Shown one piece after another: positions 22,859 to 33,098 of a stretch of DNA of 33,098 nt (position 1 is the first letter of the stretch; every line of letters starts with the position of its first letter). Position numbers and translations under genes: made by a program. The DNA is from Clostridia bacterium (GTDB taxonomy: Bacteria; Bacillota; Clostridia; Oscillospirales; SIG627): the NCBI GenBank assembly GCA_017959745.1, contig JAGDAA010000160.1, forward strand, positions 1-33,098, read 5' to 3'. Below the pieces are notes generated by a model. It searched no databases. It worked only from the letters and a program-made list of their open reading frames with translations, and was not told the origin of the DNA.

Positions 22859-23590
22859 ATGGTTGGTGAGACTTACATATACAGTTACGGTTTTTGGGAT
22901 ATTTTTCAGTACTTCGGATATTTTTTCGTGCTGATCGCCGCCCTCGCGAGTCTGATCGTGAGCGCAAACGTAAAGCTTACATTCAGAAAATGGTCAAAGT
23001 ATCCCACGCGTCCCGGTCTGACTGGCGCGGAATCCGCCCGCCTTGTTCTGCAGGCAAACGGCGTTTCGGGCGTTCGTATCGCTCCGTGCTCCGGGGAACT
23101 GACGGATCACTTTGATCCCCGGGACAATACCGTATACTTATCTGAAACGGTTTTTGACAAGGCGACCGCCGCCGCGGTTGGCGTCGCCGCTCACGAGGCG
23201 GGTCACGCTGTCCAGCACGCCCAGGCGTATGGACCGATCAAGCTTCGTCAGGCGATCATTCCTGCGACCAATATCGGCTCCCGTCTTTCCACGCCCCTGA
23301 TCATAGCTGGGCTTGTGTTTCCCGCGGTTTATCCCCTCGCCCTGATCGGTGTATTCCTGTTTGGGCTTTGTGTTGTGTTTCAGCTGGTGACCCTTCCCGT
23401 GGAGTTTAACGCGTCCCGGCGCGCCGTACAGTGCCTTTCTTCCAACGGCATTCTCGCGGGCGATGAATTGAAGGGCGCGAAAAAGACTCTGACCGCCGCC
23501 GCGTTGACCTATGTGGCTGCCTTGTCGGTTGCTCTGCTGCAATTCTTGAGACTCTTGGCGATCGTCAGCGGAGGGAGGCGAAGAAGATGA
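22859..23590 (+). CDS. YugP-like membrane zinc metallopeptidase
   Basis: LTDHFDP, AAHEAGHAVQH (HExxH), TLPVEFNASRRA and AAALTYVAA. Confidence 0.9.
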   Translation: MVGETYIYSYGFWDIFQYFGYFFVLIAALASLIVSANVKLTFRKWSKYPTRPGLTGAESARLVLQANGVSGVRIAPCSGELTDHFDPRDNTVYLSETVFDKATAAAVGVAAHEAGHAVQHAQAYGPIKLRQAIIPATNIGSRLSTPLIIAGLVFPAVYPLALIGVFLFGLCVVFQLVTLPVEFNASRRAVQCLSSNGILAGDELKGAKKTLTAAALTYVAALSVALLQFLRLLAIVSGGRRRR

Positions 23591-24003
23591 ATGTGTTTCG
23601 CAATATCAGGGAACGTATGAACCGCTTTATGGTCGGTCGCTACGGGACCGACGCGTTAAACAGGGGACTGCTCATTCTTTGGGTCGTCTTTCTGATCATC
23701 GCTTTTATCACGGGGTCTCTGTGGCTTTACATTCCCCAGTTAATCCTTTGTCTGATCATTTTCTGGCGGATGCTCTCCCGCAATATTGTCCGCAGACAGC
23801 GGGAAAACCACGGTTACTACGAATTGATGAAGAAGATCGGTACCTCATGGCGGCGCGCTATGGTGAGACTCCGGGACCGTAAAACGGCGAACTTTTTCCG
23901 CTGCCCACGCTGCCGGGCGGATATCCGGATGCCCAAACAGATCGGGAGCTTTCGGATCCGCTGCCCCAAGTGCGGGGAGGAATTTAACAAAACTTTCCGA
24001 TAA
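23587..24003 (+). CDS. Hypothetical membrane protein with a C-terminal zinc ribbon
   Basis: FMVGRYGTD, two TM helices and CPRC-x16-CPKC; ATGA overlap with the upstream gene. Confidence 0.8.
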   Translation: MNVFRNIRERMNRFMVGRYGTDALNRGLLILWVVFLIIAFITGSLWLYIPQLILCLIIFWRMLSRNIVRRQRENHGYYELMKKIGTSWRRAMVRLRDRKTANFFRCPRCRADIRMPKQIGSFRIRCPKCGEEFNKTFR

Positions 24004-24041: not shown

Positions 24042-24070
24042 TTGACAAAGCGGGGATTATTGTGTAATAT
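24042..24070 (+). promoter_or_regulatory. sigmaA promoter of T-box leader 1
   Basis: TTGACA-17 nt-TAATAT. Confidence 0.78.
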
Positions 24071-24079
24071 ACCCGCATA

Positions 24080-24338
24080 AATGCAAGGATGATATTACGT
24101 TTTCCGGCAATGCTTTCCAAGAGAGCCGCGGCAGGTGTGAAGCGGTAAAGGATCCGGAGGACGGTCTCGTATCGGAGCAGAGCGCCCGAAAGGAAACCGG
24201 TAAGGCGCTACGGGAGATCCCGTTACAGGTCGGGGACTTGCTTGAGTCCCGCAGAGTGGCTGGATTTACAGCAACCCGGGTGGTACCGTGGCAAAAATCG
24301 TTTTGTCATCCCGCGGAGGTTATCTCCGCGGGTTTTTT
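24080..24338 (+). ncRNA. T-box riboswitch, predicted Leu specifier (CUC at 24166-24168)
   Basis: Stem I with AGAGA bulge and GGTGTGAA loop; T-box GGGTGGTACCGTGG at 24278-24291; antiterminator helices CGGG/CCCG and GTGGCAAAA/TTTTGTCAT; overlapping terminator. Confidence 0.92.
24310..24338 (+). terminator. Attenuator terminator of T-box 1
   Basis: CCCGCGGAG-gttat-CTCCGCGGG-TTTTTT; shares its 5' arm with the antiterminator. Confidence 0.88.
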
Positions 24339-24363
24339 GTTTGAAGTGTAGAAAGGAATCGGT

Positions 24364-25752
24364 ATGAAAAAAATCTTCGTCTGCGACTGCACCCTTCCCG
24401 TTCTTACCGGCGAGCGCACCCGCCCGCTTTTGGCGAGAGAAAAGAACGCTCTGGCACAGCGCCTTGACGCGTTGGGCGTGGATATTCTGGAGCTTCCCGC
24501 CGTACGGAACATAAAAGAGGATACCATTATCCATAAGACAATCGCCTCCGGCGTGGGAGGAAGGATACTCGCTGTACCCGCCGGGGACAGTGAGGAAGCT
24601 GTTGATGCCGCCTGGGAGGGTGTTTCCGGCGCGGAAAAGCCCATGTTGACGATCGCGCTCCCGATCTCCACCGTGCAGATGGAGTACCGCTATCACCTGA
24701 AGGAAAACAAGATGGCGGGGAAGGTTAGCGCTCTGGTCGGGTATGCGAAGAAAAAAGGATGTCTTGTGGCGTTTTCCGCCGGCGACGCTTCTCGGGCATC
24801 CGAGCCATTTCTGACGGAGATATCCCGTACCGCTGTCGCCGCCGGCGCCGATTATCTGATCTTCTGCGACGACGCGGGGGATCTTTTGCCTGAGGAACTC
24901 GCCCGCAAGATCCGCTTGGTCAAGGATGCTGTTACGGTGCCCGTTATTGTCTCTCTCTCCGACAGTATCCATTGCGCCTGTGCCAACGCTATAACGGCAT
25001 TGCGCGCCGGCGCGGACGGCGTTCGTTGCGCTGTGACCGGGGCAGACGTGCTTCATACCGGCGCTCTCGCCGCGGCGATTGCCGCGTTGGGCGATACCCT
25101 TTCCATCTCTGTCGGATTGAGGGAAACCGAGGTCCATAATGATATTTCCGAAATGTTAAAGCATGTTTCCTCTTCCCAAAAGCCCGTATCAGGGAGTGAA
25201 TCCGCCGGTGTGATCCTGGACGCTGAAAGCACGCCCGCTCAGATCGGTGAAGCGGTCCGTTCCCTGGGATACGATCTTTCCGCTGACGATTTGGGAAAGG
25301 TCTGCGAATCCGTCGCCCGCATCTGTGAGAAAAAGAGCAGCATCGGGGACGTGGAACTGGAAGCGGTCATCGCTTCTTCCGCTATGCAGGCGCCTTCCAC
25401 CTACCATTTGGTCAGTTATCAGATCACCAGCAGCAACGTTGCCAGGGCAATGGCGAGCATCACGCTCTCCCGCGGGGATGAAACGGTGTGCGGCGTGGCA
25501 ACCGGCGACGGACCCATCGATTGTTGCTTTAAGGCCATTGAACAGTCCATCGGCTACCATTATGAACTGGACGATTTTCAGATCCAGGCGGTGACGGAGG
25601 GTAAGGAGGCTTTGGGCTCCGCGCTGGTCCGTCTGCGCAGTCAGGGAAAACTGTACTCCGGAAACGGTCTCTCCGCCGATATTGTCGGCGCCAGTATCCG
25701 CGCGTATATCAACGCTTTGAACAAGATTGTCTATGAGGAAACAGAAAGATGA
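24364..25752 (+). CDS. LeuA (2-isopropylmalate synthase)-like protein with a degenerate catalytic barrel and intact allosteric domain
   Basis: C-terminal GDGPID...QAVTEGKEALG...G.G.S.DIVGASIRAYINALNK is conserved. DTTLRDGEQ has become DCTLPVLTG and HxHND has become SLSD. Confidence 0.85.
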   Translation: MKKIFVCDCTLPVLTGERTRPLLAREKNALAQRLDALGVDILELPAVRNIKEDTIIHKTIASGVGGRILAVPAGDSEEAVDAAWEGVSGAEKPMLTIALPISTVQMEYRYHLKENKMAGKVSALVGYAKKKGCLVAFSAGDASRASEPFLTEISRTAVAAGADYLIFCDDAGDLLPEELARKIRLVKDAVTVPVIVSLSDSIHCACANAITALRAGADGVRCAVTGADVLHTGALAAAIAALGDTLSISVGLRETEVHNDISEMLKHVSSSQKPVSGSESAGVILDAESTPAQIGEAVRSLGYDLSADDLGKVCESVARICEKKSSIGDVELEAVIASSAMQAPSTYHLVSYQITSSNVARAMASITLSRGDETVCGVATGDGPIDCCFKAIEQSIGYHYELDDFQIQAVTEGKEALGSALVRLRSQGKLYSGNGLSADIVGASIRAYINALNKIVYEETER

Positions 25753-28211
25753 AGCTCGTCTTTTCAACGCATAACGTTAAGCGGGGATTCTTTTTGGATC
25801 TTTGCCGGATGGCTTTTGATTATGGCTTTTCCGGGTTTGAGATTTATGATGCCGTTTCCGAGCGCCGCTACCACGGGGACAGCGTTCTTCGCGCTGAGAT
25901 CGCATCCGATGCCAAGAGGAAGCTCCACAACCGCTCTCTCTCCGTTTCCGCGCTGACGGTCCCGCTTCCTCTGGAGGATGACGGATGTACGCCGCGCCTT
26001 TTGCTCCAGTACGTTGAAATGGCGCAGAGCGCCGGGGTGGAGCAGATCATCGTCCATACCGCCGGTGAAAACGATCTGCCTCTGTTTATGGAAAAACTCG
26101 GGGACGCCGTTAAGCGGGCGGAAGCTCTGGGTGTGGAGATCCTGTTTGAAACCACGGGATACCTGGCTGAAACGGAACACGCCCTGGAGATCGTCAACGG
26201 CTTTTCCTCCGCCGCCATCGGCGTAGCGTGGAACATCCGGGAAACCTTCTTCTCCGCCGGTGAAAGCGCCGAGAACACCATCAAAACGCTGGGCGCCTAC
26301 ATCCGTTACGTTCGCTTTGGCGACCGCAAGGAGGGAAAGGACGTTCTCGTTGGCGAAGGGGAACTCCCCGCGGTCTCCTTTATCAATGCCCTTCGCTCCC
26401 TGAATTTTGAGGGGTATATCGCCTGCGCCTGGAATGAGGAGATTACAGACGCGGATATTGTTTTAACGCATTTTCAAACTTATATGACCGGCTTTGAGAA
26501 AAGCGCTCATACCACCCGGGCTTTGCCCACGAACCGTGCCGGTACGGGGACTTTTCCCTGGAAAAAGTACGATACCATCGACCTGACCTTTCCCCAGGTG
26601 CTGGACGTAATGGCGGAGACTTATCCCGATCAGCTGGCGTTCAAATATACCACGCTGGATTATACCCGCACCTACGCCCAGTTTCGCCGAGATGTTGACC
26701 GGGTGGCGGCGGCTTTCATCGCTATGGGCGTGAAGCCCGGCTATCACGTTGCCATCTGGGCGACAAACGTTCCCGCCTGGTTTTTGACCTTCTGGGCGGC
26801 TACCAAGATCGGCGCCGTTCTGGTGACGGTAAATACCGCCTATAAGATCCACGAGGCGGAATACCTGCTGCGGCAGTCCGATACACACACTCTCATTATG
26901 ATCGAGTCTTCCAAGGATTCCGACTATAAGGGGATCATGGAGGAACTGTGCCCCGAGCTTGCCACGCTGGAAAAGGGAAAGCCCCTGTACGCCAAACGGC
27001 TTCCGTTTCTCCGGAACATTATTACCGTCGACTTTTCTATGAATGGATGCCTCACCTGGGAGGAAATGATGGACACGGCGGAGCGCACGCCCCCCGAGGA
27101 AGTCCGCCGCCGCGCCTCCCGGGTCCGTCCGGACGACGTATGTAATATGCAGTATACCTCCGGCACCACCGGTTTTCCCAAGGGCGTTATGCTGACCCAT
27201 TCCAATATTATCAACAACGGTAAGATCATCGGCGACCGTATGGATATGTCCACCGCGGACCGGATGATGATCCAGGTGCCTATGTTCCATTGCTTCGGCA
27301 TGGTGCTCTCCATGACCAATATGATGACCCACGGCGGCACCATGTGCCCCATGCCCTATTTTTCGCCGAAGTCCTGCCTGTCCTGTATCACAAACGAAAA
27401 GATCACCTGCTTCAACGGCGTACCCACTATGTTCATTGCACTTTTCAATCATGAGGACTTCGCCGTGACCGATTTCTCTCATATGCGTACCGGCATTATG
27501 GCGGGCTCCAACTGTCCGCCGGACCTGATGCGCCGCGCCGCGAGAGAAATGAATATGCGGGAGATCCTTTCCGTGTACGGGCAGACCGAATCTAGTCCGG
27601 GCTGCACCATGGGCGAGGTAAACGAGGATGAGGATCATCGGGTGGAAACCGTCGGCTCGGCTTTTCCGGGTGTTCAGTGCAAAATCATCGACCCCGAGAC
27701 CGGAAAGGATTTACCAGACGGAGAGAACGGCGAGTTCGTGGCAAAGGGCTTCAATATTATGAAAGGCTATTACAAAATGCCGGAAGCCACCAAACAGACC
27801 ATCGATGAAGATGGCTGGCTCCATACCGGCGATATCTGCTGCCGCACGACGGACGGATATTACAAGGTGACCGGACGTTTGAAGGATATGATCATCCGCG
27901 GCGGAGAAAATCTGTATCCCCGGGAGATCGAAGAGTTTTACCTGACCCATCCCAAGGTGAGGGACGTACAGGTCATCGGTGTGCCGGATGAGAAGTACGG
28001 GGAGGAGGCGTGCGCCTGGATAATCCTTCACGACCACGAGGAAAGCGGGGAAGAGGAAATGCGTGAATACGGCAATGCTCATATGGCGCGCCACAAGGTG
28101 CCCCGGTACTTCCTGTTCGTAAAGGATTTTCCCATGAACGCCGCCGGAAAGATTTTAAAGTACAAGATGAAGGAAAGCTCTGTGGAGCTTTTGGGTCTGG
28201 AAAAGAAATAA
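25749..28211 (+). CDS. Fusion of a degenerate xylose-isomerase-like TIM barrel and an AMP-forming acyl-CoA ligase
   Basis: The first ~250 aa resemble the AP-endonuclease-2/sugar epimerase barrel. C-terminal YTSGTTGFPKG, YGQTE, GWLHTGD, GRLKDMIIRGGEN and GKILK motifs are intact. Confidence 0.88.
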   Translation: MKLVFSTHNVKRGFFLDLCRMAFDYGFSGFEIYDAVSERRYHGDSVLRAEIASDAKRKLHNRSLSVSALTVPLPLEDDGCTPRLLLQYVEMAQSAGVEQIIVHTAGENDLPLFMEKLGDAVKRAEALGVEILFETTGYLAETEHALEIVNGFSSAAIGVAWNIRETFFSAGESAENTIKTLGAYIRYVRFGDRKEGKDVLVGEGELPAVSFINALRSLNFEGYIACAWNEEITDADIVLTHFQTYMTGFEKSAHTTRALPTNRAGTGTFPWKKYDTIDLTFPQVLDVMAETYPDQLAFKYTTLDYTRTYAQFRRDVDRVAAAFIAMGVKPGYHVAIWATNVPAWFLTFWAATKIGAVLVTVNTAYKIHEAEYLLRQSDTHTLIMIESSKDSDYKGIMEELCPELATLEKGKPLYAKRLPFLRNIITVDFSMNGCLTWEEMMDTAERTPPEEVRRRASRVRPDDVCNMQYTSGTTGFPKGVMLTHSNIINNGKIIGDRMDMSTADRMMIQVPMFHCFGMVLSMTNMMTHGGTMCPMPYFSPKSCLSCITNEKITCFNGVPTMFIALFNHEDFAVTDFSHMRTGIMAGSNCPPDLMRRAAREMNMREILSVYGQTESSPGCTMGEVNEDEDHRVETVGSAFPGVQCKIIDPETGKDLPDGENGEFVAKGFNIMKGYYKMPEATKQTIDEDGWLHTGDICCRTTDGYYKVTGRLKDMIIRGGENLYPREIEEFYLTHPKVRDVQVIGVPDEKYGEEACAWIILHDHEESGEEEMREYGNAHMARHKVPRYFLFVKDFPMNAAGKILKYKMKESSVELLGLEKK

Positions 28212-28245
28212 GGACTTTTTTCGCCCGAAAAATTACGAAAAGACC

Positions 28246-28274
28246 TTGACAACAGACAAACGCGGTGATACAAT
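28246..28274 (+). promoter_or_regulatory. sigmaA promoter of T-box leader 2
   Basis: TTGACA-17 nt-TACAAT with TGn extension. Confidence 0.82.
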
Positions 28275-28286
28275 CGCCATAGTCCC

Positions 28287-28555
28287 AAAAAGCGATGACG
28301 AAGACGGAGCTGATCGTGAAGCCCCAAGAGAGCCGGGGACGGTGTGATCCCGGCGGTGAAAGATCTCCCTCCCATCCCTTCCGAGCTGAAGGTCCGAACA
28401 CCCTTCGTTAGTAGGCGCCTTCCGTGATTGCTGCGTAAACGCATACGGCTTGTCAGAGCCTGAGTGGCGGTTTTATCCGCAATTTGAGTGGTACCGCGGG
28501 TCTTGAAGAGGTTTCAAGCTCGTCTCAAAGTAGATTCTTTGGGACGAGTTTTTTT
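28287..28555 (+). ncRNA. T-box riboswitch, predicted Ile specifier (AUC at 28374-28376)
   Basis: AGAGA bulge and GGTGTGA loop; stem II GAA/AGTA S-turn; T-box GAGTGGTACCGCGG at 28486-28499; antiterminator helices TTGAG/CTCAA and GCGGG/CTCGT. Confidence 0.92.
28519..28555 (+). terminator. Attenuator terminator of T-box 2
   Basis: CTCGTCTCAAAG-tagatt-CTTTGGGACGAG-T7. Confidence 0.88.
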
Positions 28556-28572: not shown

Positions 28573-30837
28573 ATGAACACCGCAAAGCCTATGCAAAACG
28601 AACTGACCGAGGTCGCTTCCCGCATTCGTGCTATTCGTGAGATCCTTGGCTACACGGAAGAAGCTATGGCGGGACTGACCGAAGTCTCCGTGTCGGATTA
28701 CGTCACGTATGAAAGCGGAAAGGTGGATCTGCCCTTTACTTTTATCCACAAATGCGCGCTGGCGTTCCGTATGGAGCTCACCGAGCTTTTGGAAGGGCAC
28801 GACGCGCACCTGTCCTCCTACACGGTCACCCGCAAGGGGCAAGGACATCAGACCGCCAAAGAAGACGGCATTATGATCCAGAATCTTGCGCCCAAGTTCA
28901 AGAGCAAGATCGCGGAGCCCTACTGGGTCCGCTACGAGTATTCCGAGGAACTTCAGAACAAGCCCATTCACCTGACCCGGCACAGCGGGCAGGAGTTTGA
29001 CCTGATTTTGTCCGGCTCCCTTTTGGTGCAGGTCGGAAAACACCAGGAGGTTCTCCGGGAAGGGGACAGCATTTACTACAACAGTTCCACGCCTCACGGT
29101 ATGATCGCGGTTGGCGGGAAGGACTGCGTATTCTGCGCGGTGGTCCTGCCCGGCGAGGACGGAAGCCGGGACGAAATGAGACAGACCGCTACCGCAGCCG
29201 ATACAAGGCTTTTGTGCGAGGAATTCGTCACCACCGGCGTGGACGAATCGGGGCGTCTCCAATCGGTGGAGTTTCACAATACGGAGCGCTTCAATTTCGG
29301 GTATGACGTGGTGGATCGAATCGCCGATCATTATCCCGAAAAGCTCGCAATGATCCATCTGGATAAAAACAAGGTGGAGCGGCGCTTTACCTTCAAGGAT
29401 ATCAAGAAGGAGTCCAACCGCACCGCAAACTACTTCCGCTCTTTGGGCATCAAAAAGGGCGACAAGGTTATGCTGGTTCTGAAGCGCCATTATCAGTTCT
29501 GGTTCGCCATGGTGGCGCTCCACAAGCTGGGCGCCATCGCCATCCCCGCTACCTACCTTCTCAAAGTTCATGATTTTGAGTATCGCTATAACGCAGCCGG
29601 GGTCAACGCCATTGTATGCACCGCCGACGGAGACACCGCTGATCTGGCGGAACAGGCCATGAAGAATTCCCCCACGGTGACCACCAGGGTCCTGGTGGGC
29701 GGTAAAAAGGACGGCTGGCACGATTTCGACGCGGAGTACCCGTTGTTCTCCAGCGTCTTTCCCCGCACGGAAGAAACCCCCGCGGGAGACGAGCCCGCCT
29801 TGATGTTCTTCTCCTCCGGTACCACCGGGAATCCCAAGATGGTGGAGCACAAGCACACCTACAGCCTGGGGCACTTCCTGACGGCGCGCTATTGGCATTG
29901 CTGTGAGCCGGACGGCTTACACTTCACCATTTCCGATACCGGCTGGGGCAAGTCCCTGTGGGGCAAGCTCTACGGACAGTGGATGTGTGAGGGCGCGGTT
30001 TTCGTTTATGACTTCGATCGGTTTGACGCTTCGGATATCCTTCCCATGTTCGCCAAGTATCAGATCACGACCTTCTGCGCGCCGCCCACTATGCTGCGTA
30101 TGATGATCAAGCAGGATATTTCCAAGTACGACTTTTCCTCCGTGAAGCATATGACCACGGCTGGGGAGGCGCTGAATCCCGAGGTTTATCGGCAATTCGA
30201 GAAAGCCACGGGGCTGGAGATTATGGAGGGCTTCGGACAGACGGAGACCACTCTTGTCATCGCTAACTTCGCCGGAACCCCGGTCAAGATCGGCTCTATG
30301 GGTATCGCATCTCCCCAGTACAAATTGGAACTGGTGGATAAGGACGATAAACCCGTGCCGCCCGGAGAGGTGGGTGAGATCGCCATCCGCTTGGATGGGG
30401 GAAGCCCGGTCGGTCTGTTTCGTCAGTACCTGGCGGAAGAAGAAAAGACCGCCGAATGTATGCGCAACGGACTGTATCACACCGGCGATACCGCCTGGAG
30501 AGACGAAGACGGCTACTTCTGGTACGTGGGCCGTGTGGACGACATCATCAAGTCCTCCGGCTACCGCATCGGACCCTTTGAGATCGAGAGTGTCATCATG
30601 GAACTGCCCTACGTTCTGGAGTGCGGCGTTTCCGCCGCCCCCGACGAGATCCGCGGGCAGATCGTCAAGGCGAGCGTCGTTCTGACCAAGGGTACCAAGC
30701 CCACGGAGGAACTGAAAAAGGAAATCCAGAACTACGTCAAGGAGCATACCGCTCCTTACAAATACCCGAGACTTGTGGTGTTCCGGGATGAACTGCCCAA
30801 GACCATCAGCGGTAAGATCCGCCGCAACGAGCTGTAA
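28573..30837 (+). CDS. Fusion of an XRE HTH-cupin regulator module and a medium-chain acyl-CoA synthetase-like ligase
   Basis: N-terminal RIRAIRE...YESGK HTH and cupin HSGQEF...LREGDSIYYNSSTPHGM; then FSSGTTGNPK, SDTGWGK, EGFGQTET, YHTGD, GRVDDIIKSSGYRIGP and PKTISGKIRR. Confidence 0.9.
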   Translation: MNTAKPMQNELTEVASRIRAIREILGYTEEAMAGLTEVSVSDYVTYESGKVDLPFTFIHKCALAFRMELTELLEGHDAHLSSYTVTRKGQGHQTAKEDGIMIQNLAPKFKSKIAEPYWVRYEYSEELQNKPIHLTRHSGQEFDLILSGSLLVQVGKHQEVLREGDSIYYNSSTPHGMIAVGGKDCVFCAVVLPGEDGSRDEMRQTATAADTRLLCEEFVTTGVDESGRLQSVEFHNTERFNFGYDVVDRIADHYPEKLAMIHLDKNKVERRFTFKDIKKESNRTANYFRSLGIKKGDKVMLVLKRHYQFWFAMVALHKLGAIAIPATYLLKVHDFEYRYNAAGVNAIVCTADGDTADLAEQAMKNSPTVTTRVLVGGKKDGWHDFDAEYPLFSSVFPRTEETPAGDEPALMFFSSGTTGNPKMVEHKHTYSLGHFLTARYWHCCEPDGLHFTISDTGWGKSLWGKLYGQWMCEGAVFVYDFDRFDASDILPMFAKYQITTFCAPPTMLRMMIKQDISKYDFSSVKHMTTAGEALNPEVYRQFEKATGLEIMEGFGQTETTLVIANFAGTPVKIGSMGIASPQYKLELVDKDDKPVPPGEVGEIAIRLDGGSPVGLFRQYLAEEEKTAECMRNGLYHTGDTAWRDEDGYFWYVGRVDDIIKSSGYRIGPFEIESVIMELPYVLECGVSAAPDEIRGQIVKASVVLTKGTKPTEELKKEIQNYVKEHTAPYKYPRLVVFRDELPKTISGKIRRNEL

Positions 30838-30884: not shown

Positions 30885-31958
30885 ATGGCTTACAACATTC
30901 CGATTACAAAAACACAGAATCCCAAGCCCCTGCCTCAGGATGAGACCAAGCTGGGCTTCGGAAGGATCTTCACCGATCATATGTTCGTGTGGGATTGGGA
31001 TAAAGAGAAGGGCTGGCACGATCCCCGTATTGAGCCTTTCGGTCCCATCGTCCTGCACCCTGCCTCCACCGTTCTGCACTACGGCGCGGAGATTTTTGAG
31101 GGTTTGAAGGCATATCGCAGGATTGACGGCACAATCGCCATGTTCCGTCCCCAGGAGAATTTCAAGCGTATGAACCGTTCCGCCGAGCGGATGGGTCTGC
31201 CGGAATTCGACGGCGAGCTGGCGTTGGAAGGTCTCACGAAACTGGTGGATCTGGATTCCGAATGGATCCCTCACGGTGAAGGGACCAGTCTCTATATCCG
31301 CCCCTTTATGATCGGCGACGATGAGCATTTGGGCGTTCACGCCGTATCTCACGCCCGTTTTTACATCATCCTTTCCCCTTCCGGAAGCTACTATGCCGGC
31401 GGCCTGGCACCCGTGAAGATTATGATTGAATCCCACGATGTGCGCGCGGTCCGCGGCGGCACGGGCGAAGCCAAGTGCGGCGGTAACTACGCTGCCAGCA
31501 CCCGCGCCGGCGAGAAGGCCATGGAGAAGGGCTTTGCCCAGGTTTTGTGGCTGGACGGTGTGGAACAGAAGTACATCGAAGAAGTTGGTGCGATGAACAT
31601 TATGTTCAAGATCGCCGGCAAGATCGTCACCCCTGCGCTCACCGGTTCCATTCTGCCCGGTATCACCCGGAAGAGCATCCTGGAGTATCTCCGCGCCCAT
31701 GGCGTGGACGCCGAGGAACGCCGGATCAGCGTGGATGAACTGGCGAAAGCTATGGAAGACGGCACGCTGGAGGAAGCCTGGGGCTGCGGCACCGCGGCGG
31801 TGGTGTCTCCCGTGGGTCTCCTTTCTTACAACGGCAAGGAATATGAGATCGCCGGCGGAAAGATCGGCGAAACGACGCAGATGCTCTACGACGCCATCAC
31901 CGGCATCCAGTGGGGCAAGCGTCCTGATGAATTCGGCTGGATCTACAAGGTGAAATGA
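30885..31958 (+). CDS. ilvE: Branched-chain amino acid aminotransferase
   Basis: LGFGRIFTDHM, LHYGAEIFEGLKAYR, KCGGNYA (PLP Lys), EEVGAMN, ILPGITR and GTAAVVSPVG. Confidence 0.96.
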   Translation: MAYNIPITKTQNPKPLPQDETKLGFGRIFTDHMFVWDWDKEKGWHDPRIEPFGPIVLHPASTVLHYGAEIFEGLKAYRRIDGTIAMFRPQENFKRMNRSAERMGLPEFDGELALEGLTKLVDLDSEWIPHGEGTSLYIRPFMIGDDEHLGVHAVSHARFYIILSPSGSYYAGGLAPVKIMIESHDVRAVRGGTGEAKCGGNYAASTRAGEKAMEKGFAQVLWLDGVEQKYIEEVGAMNIMFKIAGKIVTPALTGSILPGITRKSILEYLRAHGVDAEERRISVDELAKAMEDGTLEEAWGCGTAAVVSPVGLLSYNGKEYEIAGGKIGETTQMLYDAITGIQWGKRPDEFGWIYKVK

Positions 31959-32596
31959 AGCGCGTAACCCTGTTTTGCGGGCATTACGGCAGCGGTAAGA
32001 CCAATATCGCCATCAACTACACCAAGTCATTGATTAAACGCGGCTTGCCTGTGACCATCGCTGACCTGGATGTGGTCAATCCCTACTTTCGAACCAAGGA
32101 CAGCGAGGCGGAATTGATCGAAGCGGGCGCGAAGGTCATCACGATGCCCTTTGCCAACAGCAACGTGGATCTCCCGTCCCTTCCCGCTGAGGCATACGCC
32201 CTCGTACAGGACAAAATCCGCTACGCCGTGATCGACGTGGGCGGTGACGACCGGGGCGCTTTGGCGCTGGGTCGGTACGTTCCGTACATCCTGGAGGAAA
32301 ACAACTACGATATGCTCTGTGTCGTGAACTTTTACCGCCCGCTGACTACCACGCCCGGGGAGGCGCTGGAAGTGTTGCGGGAGGTGGAAGCGGCGGCGGG
32401 ACTCCCTTTCACGGGGATCGTCAACAATTCCAATCTGGGAGCGGAGACCACCAGGGAAGCGATAGAAGCGAGCAAGGATAAAGCGGCTGCTTTGTCGAAA
32501 CTTGCCGGCATTCCGGTGCGTTTTACCTCCGTCCGCGCCGACCTTGCCTGTGGCGACGAATTTCCACTTGATTTGCAAAAGAAAATTTTTGAATAG
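31955..32596 (+). CDS. P-loop NTPase of unknown function (MinD/CooC/CobQ-like fold)
   Basis: GHYGSGKT, ADLDVVNPYFRT and IDVGGD; ATGA-coupled to ilvE. Confidence 0.8.
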   Translation: MKRVTLFCGHYGSGKTNIAINYTKSLIKRGLPVTIADLDVVNPYFRTKDSEAELIEAGAKVITMPFANSNVDLPSLPAEAYALVQDKIRYAVIDVGGDDRGALALGRYVPYILEENNYDMLCVVNFYRPLTTTPGEALEVLREVEAAAGLPFTGIVNNSNLGAETTREAIEASKDKAAALSKLAGIPVRFTSVRADLACGDEFPLDLQKKIFE

Positions 32597-32605
32597 GAGA
32601 ACGGT

Positions 32606-32812
32606 ATGGCAAAAGTTACGTTTCAAACCGACCTGTGCAAGGGCTGCGGTCTGTGTGTGGCAGCCTGCCCCAAGAAGATCCTGGTGATTGCCAAGGATAA
32701 GATCAACAAAAAGGGTCATTCCCCTGCCGAAATGACGGATCAGTCCCAGTGCATCGGATGCGCTTTCTGCGCGACTATGTGCCCGGATTGCGTCATTACG
32801 GTGGAAAAGTGA
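32606..32812 (+). CDS. 2[4Fe-4S] delta subunit of a 2-oxoacid:ferredoxin oxidoreductase
   Basis: CKGCGLCVAACP and CIGCAFCATMCPD; directly upstream of vorB. Confidence 0.92.
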   Translation: MAKVTFQTDLCKGCGLCVAACPKKILVIAKDKINKKGHSPAEMTDQSQCIGCAFCATMCPDCVITVEK

Positions 32813-32821
32813 GGTGAGAGT

Positions 32822-33098
32822 ATGGCGGAAAAAGTATTGATGAAGGGCAACGAGGCCATCGCCGAAGCGGCGATTCGCGCCGGTTGCCGCCACTATTTCG
32901 GCTATCCCATCACGCCCCAGACGGAACTGGCGGCGTATATGGCAAAGCGTATGCCCAAGATCGGCGGCGTCTTCCTCCAGGCGGAGAGCGAGATCGCCGC
33001 GATCAACATGGTCTACGGCGTTTCCGGTACCGGTAAGCGCGTCATGACTTCTTCCTCCTCCCCCGGCGTTTCCTTAAAGCAGGAGGGCATTTCCTACA
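32822..33098 (+). CDS. vorB: 2-oxoisovalerate (3-methyl-2-oxobutanoate):ferredoxin oxidoreductase alpha-type subunit VorB, 3'-truncated; absent from the ORF track
   Basis: My translation reads [35 protein letters not shown]...[14 protein letters not shown]...[17 protein letters not shown]; GAGGTG RBS. Confidence 0.88.

Follow-up and report, generated by a model that had tools for sequence, protein, structure and literature searches.

A catalytically dead LeuA paralogue encoded with an acyl-CoA ligase behind a probable leucine T-box: a candidate leucine-binding regulatory subunit in gut Clostridia

Introduction

HisZ is an inactive histidyl-tRNA synthetase paralogue that acts as the regulatory subunit of the short-form ATP phosphoribosyltransferase HisG. 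Here we describe a possible counterpart in leucine metabolism, a catalytically dead paralogue of LeuA (2-isopropylmalate synthase) encoded at positions 24364-25752, plus strand, of a 33,098-nucleotide stretch of DNA from a Clostridia bacterium (contig JAGDAA010000160.1; the whole stretch is called the window below). By the logic of HisZ and HisG, we infer that this protein, referred to as dead LeuA, is a pseudoenzyme regulatory subunit, its partner being the acyl-CoA ligase encoded next to it. Both proteins are dead paralogues from the metabolism of the amino acid concerned, encoded beside a catalytic partner, and dead LeuA would likewise be the allosteric subunit of a first committed step. 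For HisZ, however, experiments have established both the complex and the part it plays in histidine feedback, whereas both are predictions for dead LeuA. HisZ also acts on an enzyme of the classical pathway, whereas dead LeuA would act on the first enzyme of a replacement pathway, by way of a second dead domain that is fused to this enzyme.

LeuA of the bacterial type (TIGR00973) belongs to the DRE-TIM metallolyase superfamily. The Arg-Asp pair of its DTTLRDGEQ motif binds substrate and metal, and an HxH pair provides metal ligands. Dead LeuA shares the barrel fold and a C-terminal LeuA_dimer domain with GDGPID, TEGxxALG and S(T)DI motifs, but it is about 50 residues shorter and lacks the Arg-Asp pair, the HxH pair, the catalytic Glu and subdomain I. 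It also differs in setting, being present only where true LeuA was not found and coupled to an acyl-CoA ligase rather than to leuBCD.

Genes behind a T-box leader are turned on by the uncharged form of the cognate tRNA. Marta, Ladner and Grandoni reportedly showed in 1996 that the ilv-leu operon of Bacillus subtilis is under a T-box with a CUC specifier. The present locus also has a CUC T-box leader ahead of a leuA-type gene, but this leader precedes dead LeuA and an acyl-CoA ligase instead of ilvBHC-leuABCD. From the 1960s on, Allison and Bryant are said to have found that rumen and gut anaerobes depend on branched short-chain fatty acids, from which they form branched-chain amino acids by carboxylation; to our knowledge, the genes and the control of this route are poorly defined. 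A search of main texts in the open-access literature found nothing on a dead LeuA paralogue or on the present gene set. According to PMC10026030, MbcS activates exogenous branched short-chain acids by an AMP-forming reaction, as would a second, MbcS-like ligase of the window, and feeds fatty-acid synthesis. The ligase paired with dead LeuA, by contrast, is PRK12583-like and thereby of another branch, with a dead TIM domain fused to it, and neither ligase of the window reaches an equivalog cut-off.

Results

Dead LeuA was characterised by its open reading frame (ORF), Pfam and NCBIfam profiles, alignments, a structure model and the ratio of non-synonymous to synonymous substitution rates (dN/dS). 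Its 462 residues comprise a barrel (residues 1-230; 24364-25053), a linker with the remnant of subdomain II (231-327; 25054-25344) and the regulatory LeuA_dimer domain (328-462; 25345-25749), all on the plus strand. Pfam HMGL-like (PF00682) matches residues 22-227 (E 1.5e-25) and LeuA_dimer (PF08502) matches residues 328-455 (E 2.5e-29), the latter covering profile positions 3-130 of 131. The LeuA equivalog cut-offs are missed by far, with 240.5 bits against 532 for NF002086 and 214.1 against 598.7 for TIGR00973 (36-45% of the NCBIfam cut-offs of the LeuA family), and in the genome-wide profile search the ORF was matched in two pieces of 116.9 and 96.5 bits.

Catalytic motifs were read from HMMER alignments to the solved LeuA barrels 3ewb, 3eeg and 6e1j, and a second time from a MAFFT alignment of 81 family members with five true LeuA of related genomes. 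Relatives of dead LeuA are encoded by 487 stretches (one genome per species of GTDB); locus counts out of 80 below refer to the best 80 of these, and counts out of 81 to these loci plus the window. At the position of DTTLRDGEQ the window reads VCDCTLPVLTGERT / DCTLPVLTGE and the family consensus DITLKKLSED. FSAED is replaced by VAFSAGDASR, the Glu of xED being Gly in the window and Leu in the family consensus, PDTVG is represented by IFCDDAGD, from which the Thr is gone, and HCHND by VSLSDS (family consensus VQVSDR), from which the HxH pair is gone. At the GERAGN site the MAFFT alignment has a four-residue deletion, and the HESGIH segment, in subdomain I, has been removed by a deletion of about 33 residues in 81/81 members. 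The substitutions are thus common to the whole family in the 81-member alignment and are not the noise of a single sequence. In LeuA, subdomain I acts through His379 and Tyr410 (PMC9860122), and the HESGIH histidine completes the active site of the partner chain. GDGPID, VTEGKEALG and DIVGASIRAYINALNK are, in turn, retained in the C-terminal part of the window protein. The AlphaFold model of dead LeuA (mean predicted local distance difference test score, pLDDT, 78.5) was superposed by Foldseek on 3ewb and 3eeg with a root-mean-square deviation of 1.7-1.8 A and a TM-score of 0.91-0.92 (target). Judged from these alignments, the ORF product lacks every first-shell catalytic residue of LeuA, and we read it as a non-catalytic descendant of a real LeuA.

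The gene is not decaying. The ORF is intact and 460-463 residues long in 81/81 family members examined, and 25 phylogenetically independent pairs gave median dN/dS values of 0.091 in the barrel, 0.028 in the regulatory domain and, with one pair set aside for saturated dS, 0.079 in the linker (24 pairs). Dead LeuA is therefore under strong purifying selection, with the regulatory domain as its most constrained part. GDGPID and S-x-D-I are invariant across the 81-member alignment, and in the model they mark the N-termini of two helices. Animal guts are the source of all 80 best loci, which belong to uncultured Clostridia, Oscillospiraceae or Acutalibacteraceae, and this DNA is also present in sequencing runs of two separate studies (0.92 and 0.94 of sampled words). 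No RNA dataset with 24200-28300 of the window was found.

These results bear out most of an earlier note on this DNA, which had been made from the letters alone. It had claimed a catalytically dead LeuA with the four motifs DTTLRDGEQ, FSAED, PDTVG and HCHND substituted, with GERAGN and HESGIHQDG unrecognisable and with a conserved C-terminal allosteric domain, and had held the gene to be retained, asking for per-domain dN/dS; alignments to solved and related true LeuA, the deletions at the two unrecognisable sites, the PF08502 match, the selection estimates and the absence of frameshifted ORFs among the 81 all agree with it. Its expectation that pipelines would call the gene leuA proved largely wrong. 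The protein search listed 120 homologues (460-476 residues, 51-79% identity) from Clostridia and Ruminococcaceae metagenome bins, which are mostly unnamed or called 'hypothetical protein'; one bears the name 'alpha-isopropylmalate synthase regulatory domain-containing protein', and one JGI entry is called '2-isopropylmalate synthase'.

In a maximum-likelihood tree, rooted at its midpoint only, the family forms a single clade (100/100) with a long stem (1.84 changes per column). This clade falls within the true LeuA of the order and is split from CimA-like and type-2 paralogues (99/99). The regulatory domain of the window protein is 35-43% identical to true LeuA of related genomes versus 22-26% to CimA-like paralogues. 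By these sequence comparisons, dead LeuA descends from the order's own LeuA. Fused long forms of it (810-2310 residues) were not found at E <= 1e-20, which is weak evidence.

The stop codon of dead LeuA overlaps the start of the next gene as ATGA. This gene encodes an 820-residue fusion of a xylose-isomerase-like TIM barrel (25749-26498, plus strand; Pfam AP_endonuc_2, residues 22-230) with an AMP-forming acyl-CoA ligase domain (about residues 280-820; 26586-28211, plus strand; Pfam AMP-binding, E 3.2e-93, and AMP-binding_C). The TIM::ligase gene lies directly 3' of dead LeuA in 79/80 loci, the contig of the 80th stopping there. Across loci, identity to the window is 78-84% for the ligase, 52-83% for the TIM domain and 50-79% for dead LeuA. 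The core motifs of the ligase, namely the P-loop, YGQTE, TGD, GRxKD and the terminal lysine, are all kept in the translation. Against sequences of the PDB the ligase matched only generic fatty-acyl, feruloyl and malonyl-CoA synthetases, from which no substrate can be called; for the TIM profile the best match was the uncharacterised MJ1311 (3wqo, E 4e-13), followed by sugar epimerases and isomerases, from which no function follows.

The TIM domain has itself lost a metal site. Its metal ligands are presumably Glu, Asp, His and Glu, an assignment that is consistent with the alignment to 3wqo. The corresponding motifs read LLVETNG, LWDxHH, xHIKD and SLEW in stand-alone relatives, and ILFET, WN(I/V)R(E/G)T, VR(L/F)GD and (A/C)AW next to dead LeuA. 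Asp has become Asn in 64/64 complete fusions and Glu has become Ala in 58/64, the His of HxKD is Arg in 34/34 aligned clade members, and the first Glu is kept in 63/64 fusions. Three of the four ligand positions are lost only where dead LeuA precedes; stand-alone fusions of genomes with true LeuA (among L089-L094) keep E, WDxHH, HxKD and LEW. With dead LeuA and a TIM domain lacking its metal site, two of the three globular parts of the two-gene unit are dead enzymes.

We modelled dead LeuA together with the TIM domain in three runs, with three controls and self-made alignments. The interface score ipSAE was 0.61 in the median run (0.58-0.63) versus 0.01 in the best of the three controls; the mark used for this score is reached by 58/80 solved complexes and 2/110 mismatched pairs, counts that hold only roughly for self-made alignments. 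Contacts agreed between runs to at least 45%, and the pLDDT of the partner was at least 85. The modelled interface involves barrel helices 23-28 and 51-63 of dead LeuA, with the family-invariant L23, R25, E52 and T59, and residues 24-25, 200, 203 and the C-terminal helix on the TIM side. The model supports a putative binding of the dead LeuA barrel to the TIM domain of the fusion.

TIM::ligase fusions without dead LeuA occur in five of the genomes searched, four of which have true LeuA. Identity there is 64-68% for the ligase but about 30% for the TIM domain, which is live, and no LeuA-like gene stands ahead. The fusion is thus older than dead LeuA, its partner. In one genome (G034) the TIM barrel is a separate gene 3' of the ligase, and in two further genomes the ligase lies between an MFS transporter and a metallo-beta-lactamase-fold gene.

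In the 360 nt upstream of dead LeuA, a probable T-box leader extends over 24077-24316 of the plus strand (RF00230; 90.5 bits, E 1.6e-20, full model 1-219 matched), with a CUC (Leu) specifier at 24166-24168 and the core GGUGGUACCGUG at about 24279-24290. An intrinsic terminator (24310-24342, plus strand; terminator scan) with a 10-bp stem and a T-run overlaps the 3' end of this match, and the leader is preceded by a sigma-70-like promoter (24042-24070, plus strand; TTGACA, 17 nt, TAATAT) that agrees with the consensus at 10/12 positions, this being the one site found in the scan versus 0.3 expected from shuffles. At the gathering threshold the Rfam scan of the window gave no match, and this leader and the second one described below emerged with an E-value threshold only. 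The T-box core motif is present in 62/81 regions upstream of dead LeuA, and CTC stands at the specifier column in 57/57 alignable leaders, mostly as GAA-CUC-A. By its sequence, the CUC T-box ties the operon to leucine supply. A CUC T-box also precedes the stand-alone TIM::ligase in four of the five loci with such a fusion, at 98-124.5 bits and hence above the gathering score, from which it follows that the ligase was a leucine-starvation gene before it acquired dead LeuA. In the short stretches available upstream of five true leuA loci, no T-box was found at E <= 0.001.

Dead LeuA and true LeuA were not found together. Among 41 genomes compared (the window's own and those of its genus, family and order), dead LeuA was present in 23 and true LeuA in eight (seven over the cut-off and one at 594.8 bits), while none had both and ten had neither. 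No LeuA over the cut-off was found in 50 carrier genomes searched of the 80, whose completeness is unreported and which, where related, are not independent; two of these 50 had a CimA-like match of about 257 bits. In the window genome (76.75% complete) and four further members of its genus (93-95%), ilvC and a real leuC were found in 0/5 each, and an ilvD-like gene, below the cut-off, in 2/5. One genome of the window's genus (G006) keeps leuB and a type-2 LeuA, while the ligase and dead LeuA are both absent from it. Several genomes (G002:C69, G004:C79, G023:C9 and others) have a third paralogue of the LeuA family, about 462 residues long, which matches the LeuA model over 2-335 only, lies near aconitase-like and isocitrate-dehydrogenase-like genes, and was not found in the incomplete window genome; in the light of work on Clostridium kluyveri, it may be a Re-citrate synthase.

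Downstream, the window holds further genes that could serve the same pathway, all on the plus strand. A second T-box leader (28286-28530; RF00230, 71.2 bits, E 1e-13, under the gathering score) has a specifier that is probably AUC (Ile; 28374-28376), with a low posterior probability at the specifier; ATC stands at this place in 17/18 aligned leaders and GTA in one. A homologous second leader (in L062) carries GUA (Val) and stands ahead of a ligase of 44% identity. In the window, the leader is followed by a fusion of helix-turn-helix (HTH), cupin and short-chain acyl-CoA synthetase domains (28573-30837; Pfam HTH_19, Cupin_2, AMP-binding), which among NCBIfam models comes closest to MbcS, at 444 bits (cut-off 850). 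Ligases do not usually carry a DNA-binding domain, yet this fusion is conserved at 51-76% identity in about 20 loci. Next come a type II branched-chain amino acid aminotransferase, IlvE (30885-31958), over the cut-offs of NF009897 (471.6 bits; 307) and TIGR01123 (394 bits; 250), and a 213-residue P-loop protein (GSGKT; 31955-32596) with no Pfam or NCBIfam match. The remaining two genes encode the ferredoxin-like delta subunit of a 2-oxoacid:ferredoxin oxidoreductase, with two [4Fe-4S] clusters indicated by two CxxCxxCxxxCP motifs (32606-32812), and the N-terminus of VorB, which runs off the contig end (32822-33097; POR_N match at 32864-33094). An orthologue of the delta subunit (in L103) matches OGOR_delta and PorD_KorD under their cut-offs. 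In a close relative (G005) VorB is complete (NF005507, 560 bits; cut-off 399) and is followed by beta and gamma subunits. We refer to this VorB-type ferredoxin oxidoreductase as VOR. The P-loop protein lies between ilvE and vor/vorD in 20/80 loci, where it may help VOR as an accessory protein or in its maturation.

At least one of IlvE, VOR and a second ligase was found within the flanks of 36/80 loci, and IlvE and VOR together in 19/80, in at least three gene orders. The ilvE/vor/ligase cluster is a plausible candidate route from branched-chain acids to leucine. The two ligases of the window would divide the labour between them, one under the Ile T-box and the other under the Leu T-box. MbcS of Staphylococcus aureus activates 2-methylbutyrate and isobutyrate and takes isovalerate poorly, which fits such a division.

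In L104 of one relative (G002:C15, 186-4277) the dead-LeuA operon is directly followed by hisZ-hisG-hisD-hisC, so that the textbook dead-paralogue regulator adjoins the candidate one. In the window, 23587-24003 encodes a 138-residue protein with a zinc-ribbon (CxxC...CxxC) at its C-terminus and what look like membrane helices, which has weak Pfam matches below the cut-offs and is conserved in L003; no link to the operon was seen.

Discussion

We propose, and give even chances to, a role of dead LeuA as a subunit that binds leucine and regulates an isovalerate-activating ligase. In response to uncharged tRNA-Leu, the CUC T-box leader would let transcription enter the dead LeuA and TIM::ligase genes. 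From a leucine-specific carboxylate, for which isovalerate is the likeliest candidate, the ligase would make the CoA ester, which the VorB-type ferredoxin oxidoreductase would carboxylate reductively to 2-oxoisocaproate, and IlvE would transaminate the latter to leucine. Dead LeuA would sit on the TIM domain of the ligase and, in its leucine-bound form, throttle or otherwise tune the enzyme. Its barrel would have been kept as a docking surface and its C-terminal allosteric domain as the probable leucine-binding site. We read it as a leucine-binding dimer from the invariant GDGPID and S-x-D-I at helix N-termini, and the barrels of this dimer would hold the TIM domains of two ligase chains. In LeuA, leucine lies at a dimer interface of the regulatory domain, with its carboxylate between two helix N-termini in the enzyme of Mycobacterium tuberculosis (PMC11057210). 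Leucine acts on LeuA by rigidifying the accessory and regulatory domains (PMC9860122), and a PF08502 domain can act as a detached sensor (PMC13381585). Isovalerate as the substrate, and the direction and the sign of the regulation, are what we infer for the ligase.

The feedback device of the lost isopropylmalate pathway would thereby be reused on the first step of the route that replaced it. In its fullest form the proposal is that an Oscillospirales lineage, on giving up the isopropylmalate pathway, kept both the tRNA-Leu T-box of leuA and the leucine-binding allosteric domain and moved the two onto an isovalerate-CoA ligase, with dead LeuA and the dead TIM barrel forming a leucine-gated module; this we advance tentatively, at somewhat short of even chances. 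The earlier note had envisaged a pseudoenzyme kept for leucine sensing after de novo synthesis gave way to salvage. The retained pseudoenzyme stands, but a free-standing sensor is less fitting than a subunit of the TIM::ligase, because the gene of dead LeuA forms an operon with that fusion, as the first of its two genes. The loss of de novo synthesis is likewise borne out by the lack of a bona fide LeuA in the carriers searched and by the cluster for an alternative route, a route that would be the reductive carboxylation of a fatty acid rather than uptake.

Several observations weigh against the proposed role. Motif conservation is the sole basis of the predicted leucine binding, and the substrate of the ligase is not assignable from NCBIfam, its best model, NF009233, being a generic 'fatty acid CoA ligase family' whose cut-off of 832 bits is missed at 652. 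The complex model comprised dead LeuA and the TIM domain, without the ligase part, and a mirror-tree analysis over 64 complete operons did not single out TIM over ligase as the co-evolving partner (partial correlations of 0.526 for barrel and TIM given ligase, and 0.531 for barrel and ligase given TIM). Since stand-alone TIM::ligase works without dead LeuA in genomes that have true LeuA, the partner is inessential for ligase function in general. As for control, the score of the first T-box, 90.5 bits, is just under the Rfam gathering score of 93, and 19/81 upstream regions have no T-box core, two of the 19 being too short to judge; in two of the carriers without the core (L006 and L010) no T-box was found at E <= 0.001 anywhere in the locus. 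As for the pathway, 44/80 loci have no IlvE, VOR or second ligase in their flanks, several of these with full 6-kb flanks. Finally, about 38% of barrel positions are at least 90% conserved, more than pure docking obviously needs, and this surplus could reflect a bound ligand or catalysis.

The explanation that competes best, though we consider it a clearly smaller chance, is that dead LeuA senses no leucine and serves the TIM::ligase as a non-catalytic subunit, either structural or activating, or else bridges it to VOR, so that its regulatory domain only dimerises or binds isoleucine, valine, 2-oxoisocaproate or an acyl-CoA. The complex model and the operon coupling are silent on the effector, a second leucine sensor is not strictly needed where the T-box already gives leucine control, and PF08502 domains bind isoleucine in CimA (PMC13381585). 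Such a role would sit uneasily with a regulatory domain that is under tighter constraint than the rest of the protein (dN/dS 0.028), that is nearer to true LeuA than to the CimA-like paralogues (35-43% against 22-26% identity), and that keeps the helix-N-terminal motifs common to true LeuA.

It is improbable, in our estimate, that dead LeuA is still an enzyme, with a new metal-independent activity, for example on an acyl-CoA or 2-oxoacid of the pathway. Purifying selection on the barrel (dN/dS 0.091) would accord with this, as would the strand-end residues that the family shares with LeuA, namely D8, E43, S102-T103, D141-A-T-R144 and D169. However, none of the three metal ligands is left, the catalytic Glu and the arginine that binds substrate are missing too, the subdomain I that bears the histidine is deleted, and the parallel loss of the metal site in the TIM neighbour suggests that the whole module shifted to a non-catalytic role.

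Less probable again, and to be regarded as a slim chance, is a catabolic cluster that turns branched-chain amino acids into branched fatty acids, with dead LeuA sensing leucine as a signal of substrate. IlvE and VOR are reversible in principle and found in amino-acid fermenters. A switch that turns genes on at uncharged tRNA is nevertheless the opposite of what a catabolic operon needs; moreover, both ligases are AMP-forming, which drives acid to acyl-CoA, and de novo synthesis is missing from the carrier genomes. The last alternative, that the gene is decaying, artefactual in assembly or an ordinary leuA misread, for which motif loss alone would speak, was rejected as having a negligible chance, given intact ORFs of constant length in 81/81 members, dN/dS well below 1 in every domain, a relative in each of 487 stretches and the same DNA in the runs of two studies.

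With dead LeuA read as a regulatory subunit, the locus presents a complete candidate route: a ligase with dead LeuA under a Leu T-box, an MbcS-like ligase under a probable Ile T-box, and a shared VOR and IlvE. For annotation, the relatives at 487 places should be named neither leuA nor 'hypothetical', and counting them as LeuA would lead to a false prediction of leucine prototrophy via the isopropylmalate pathway. If the proposal is true, it names the long-unassigned genes for the reductive carboxylation of isovalerate to leucine in gut and rumen anaerobes, and provides a leucine-sensing module of natural origin, perhaps a portable one. Bacteria would then also offer a clear example of a pseudoenzyme carrying the allostery of a lost pathway onto an unrelated enzyme.

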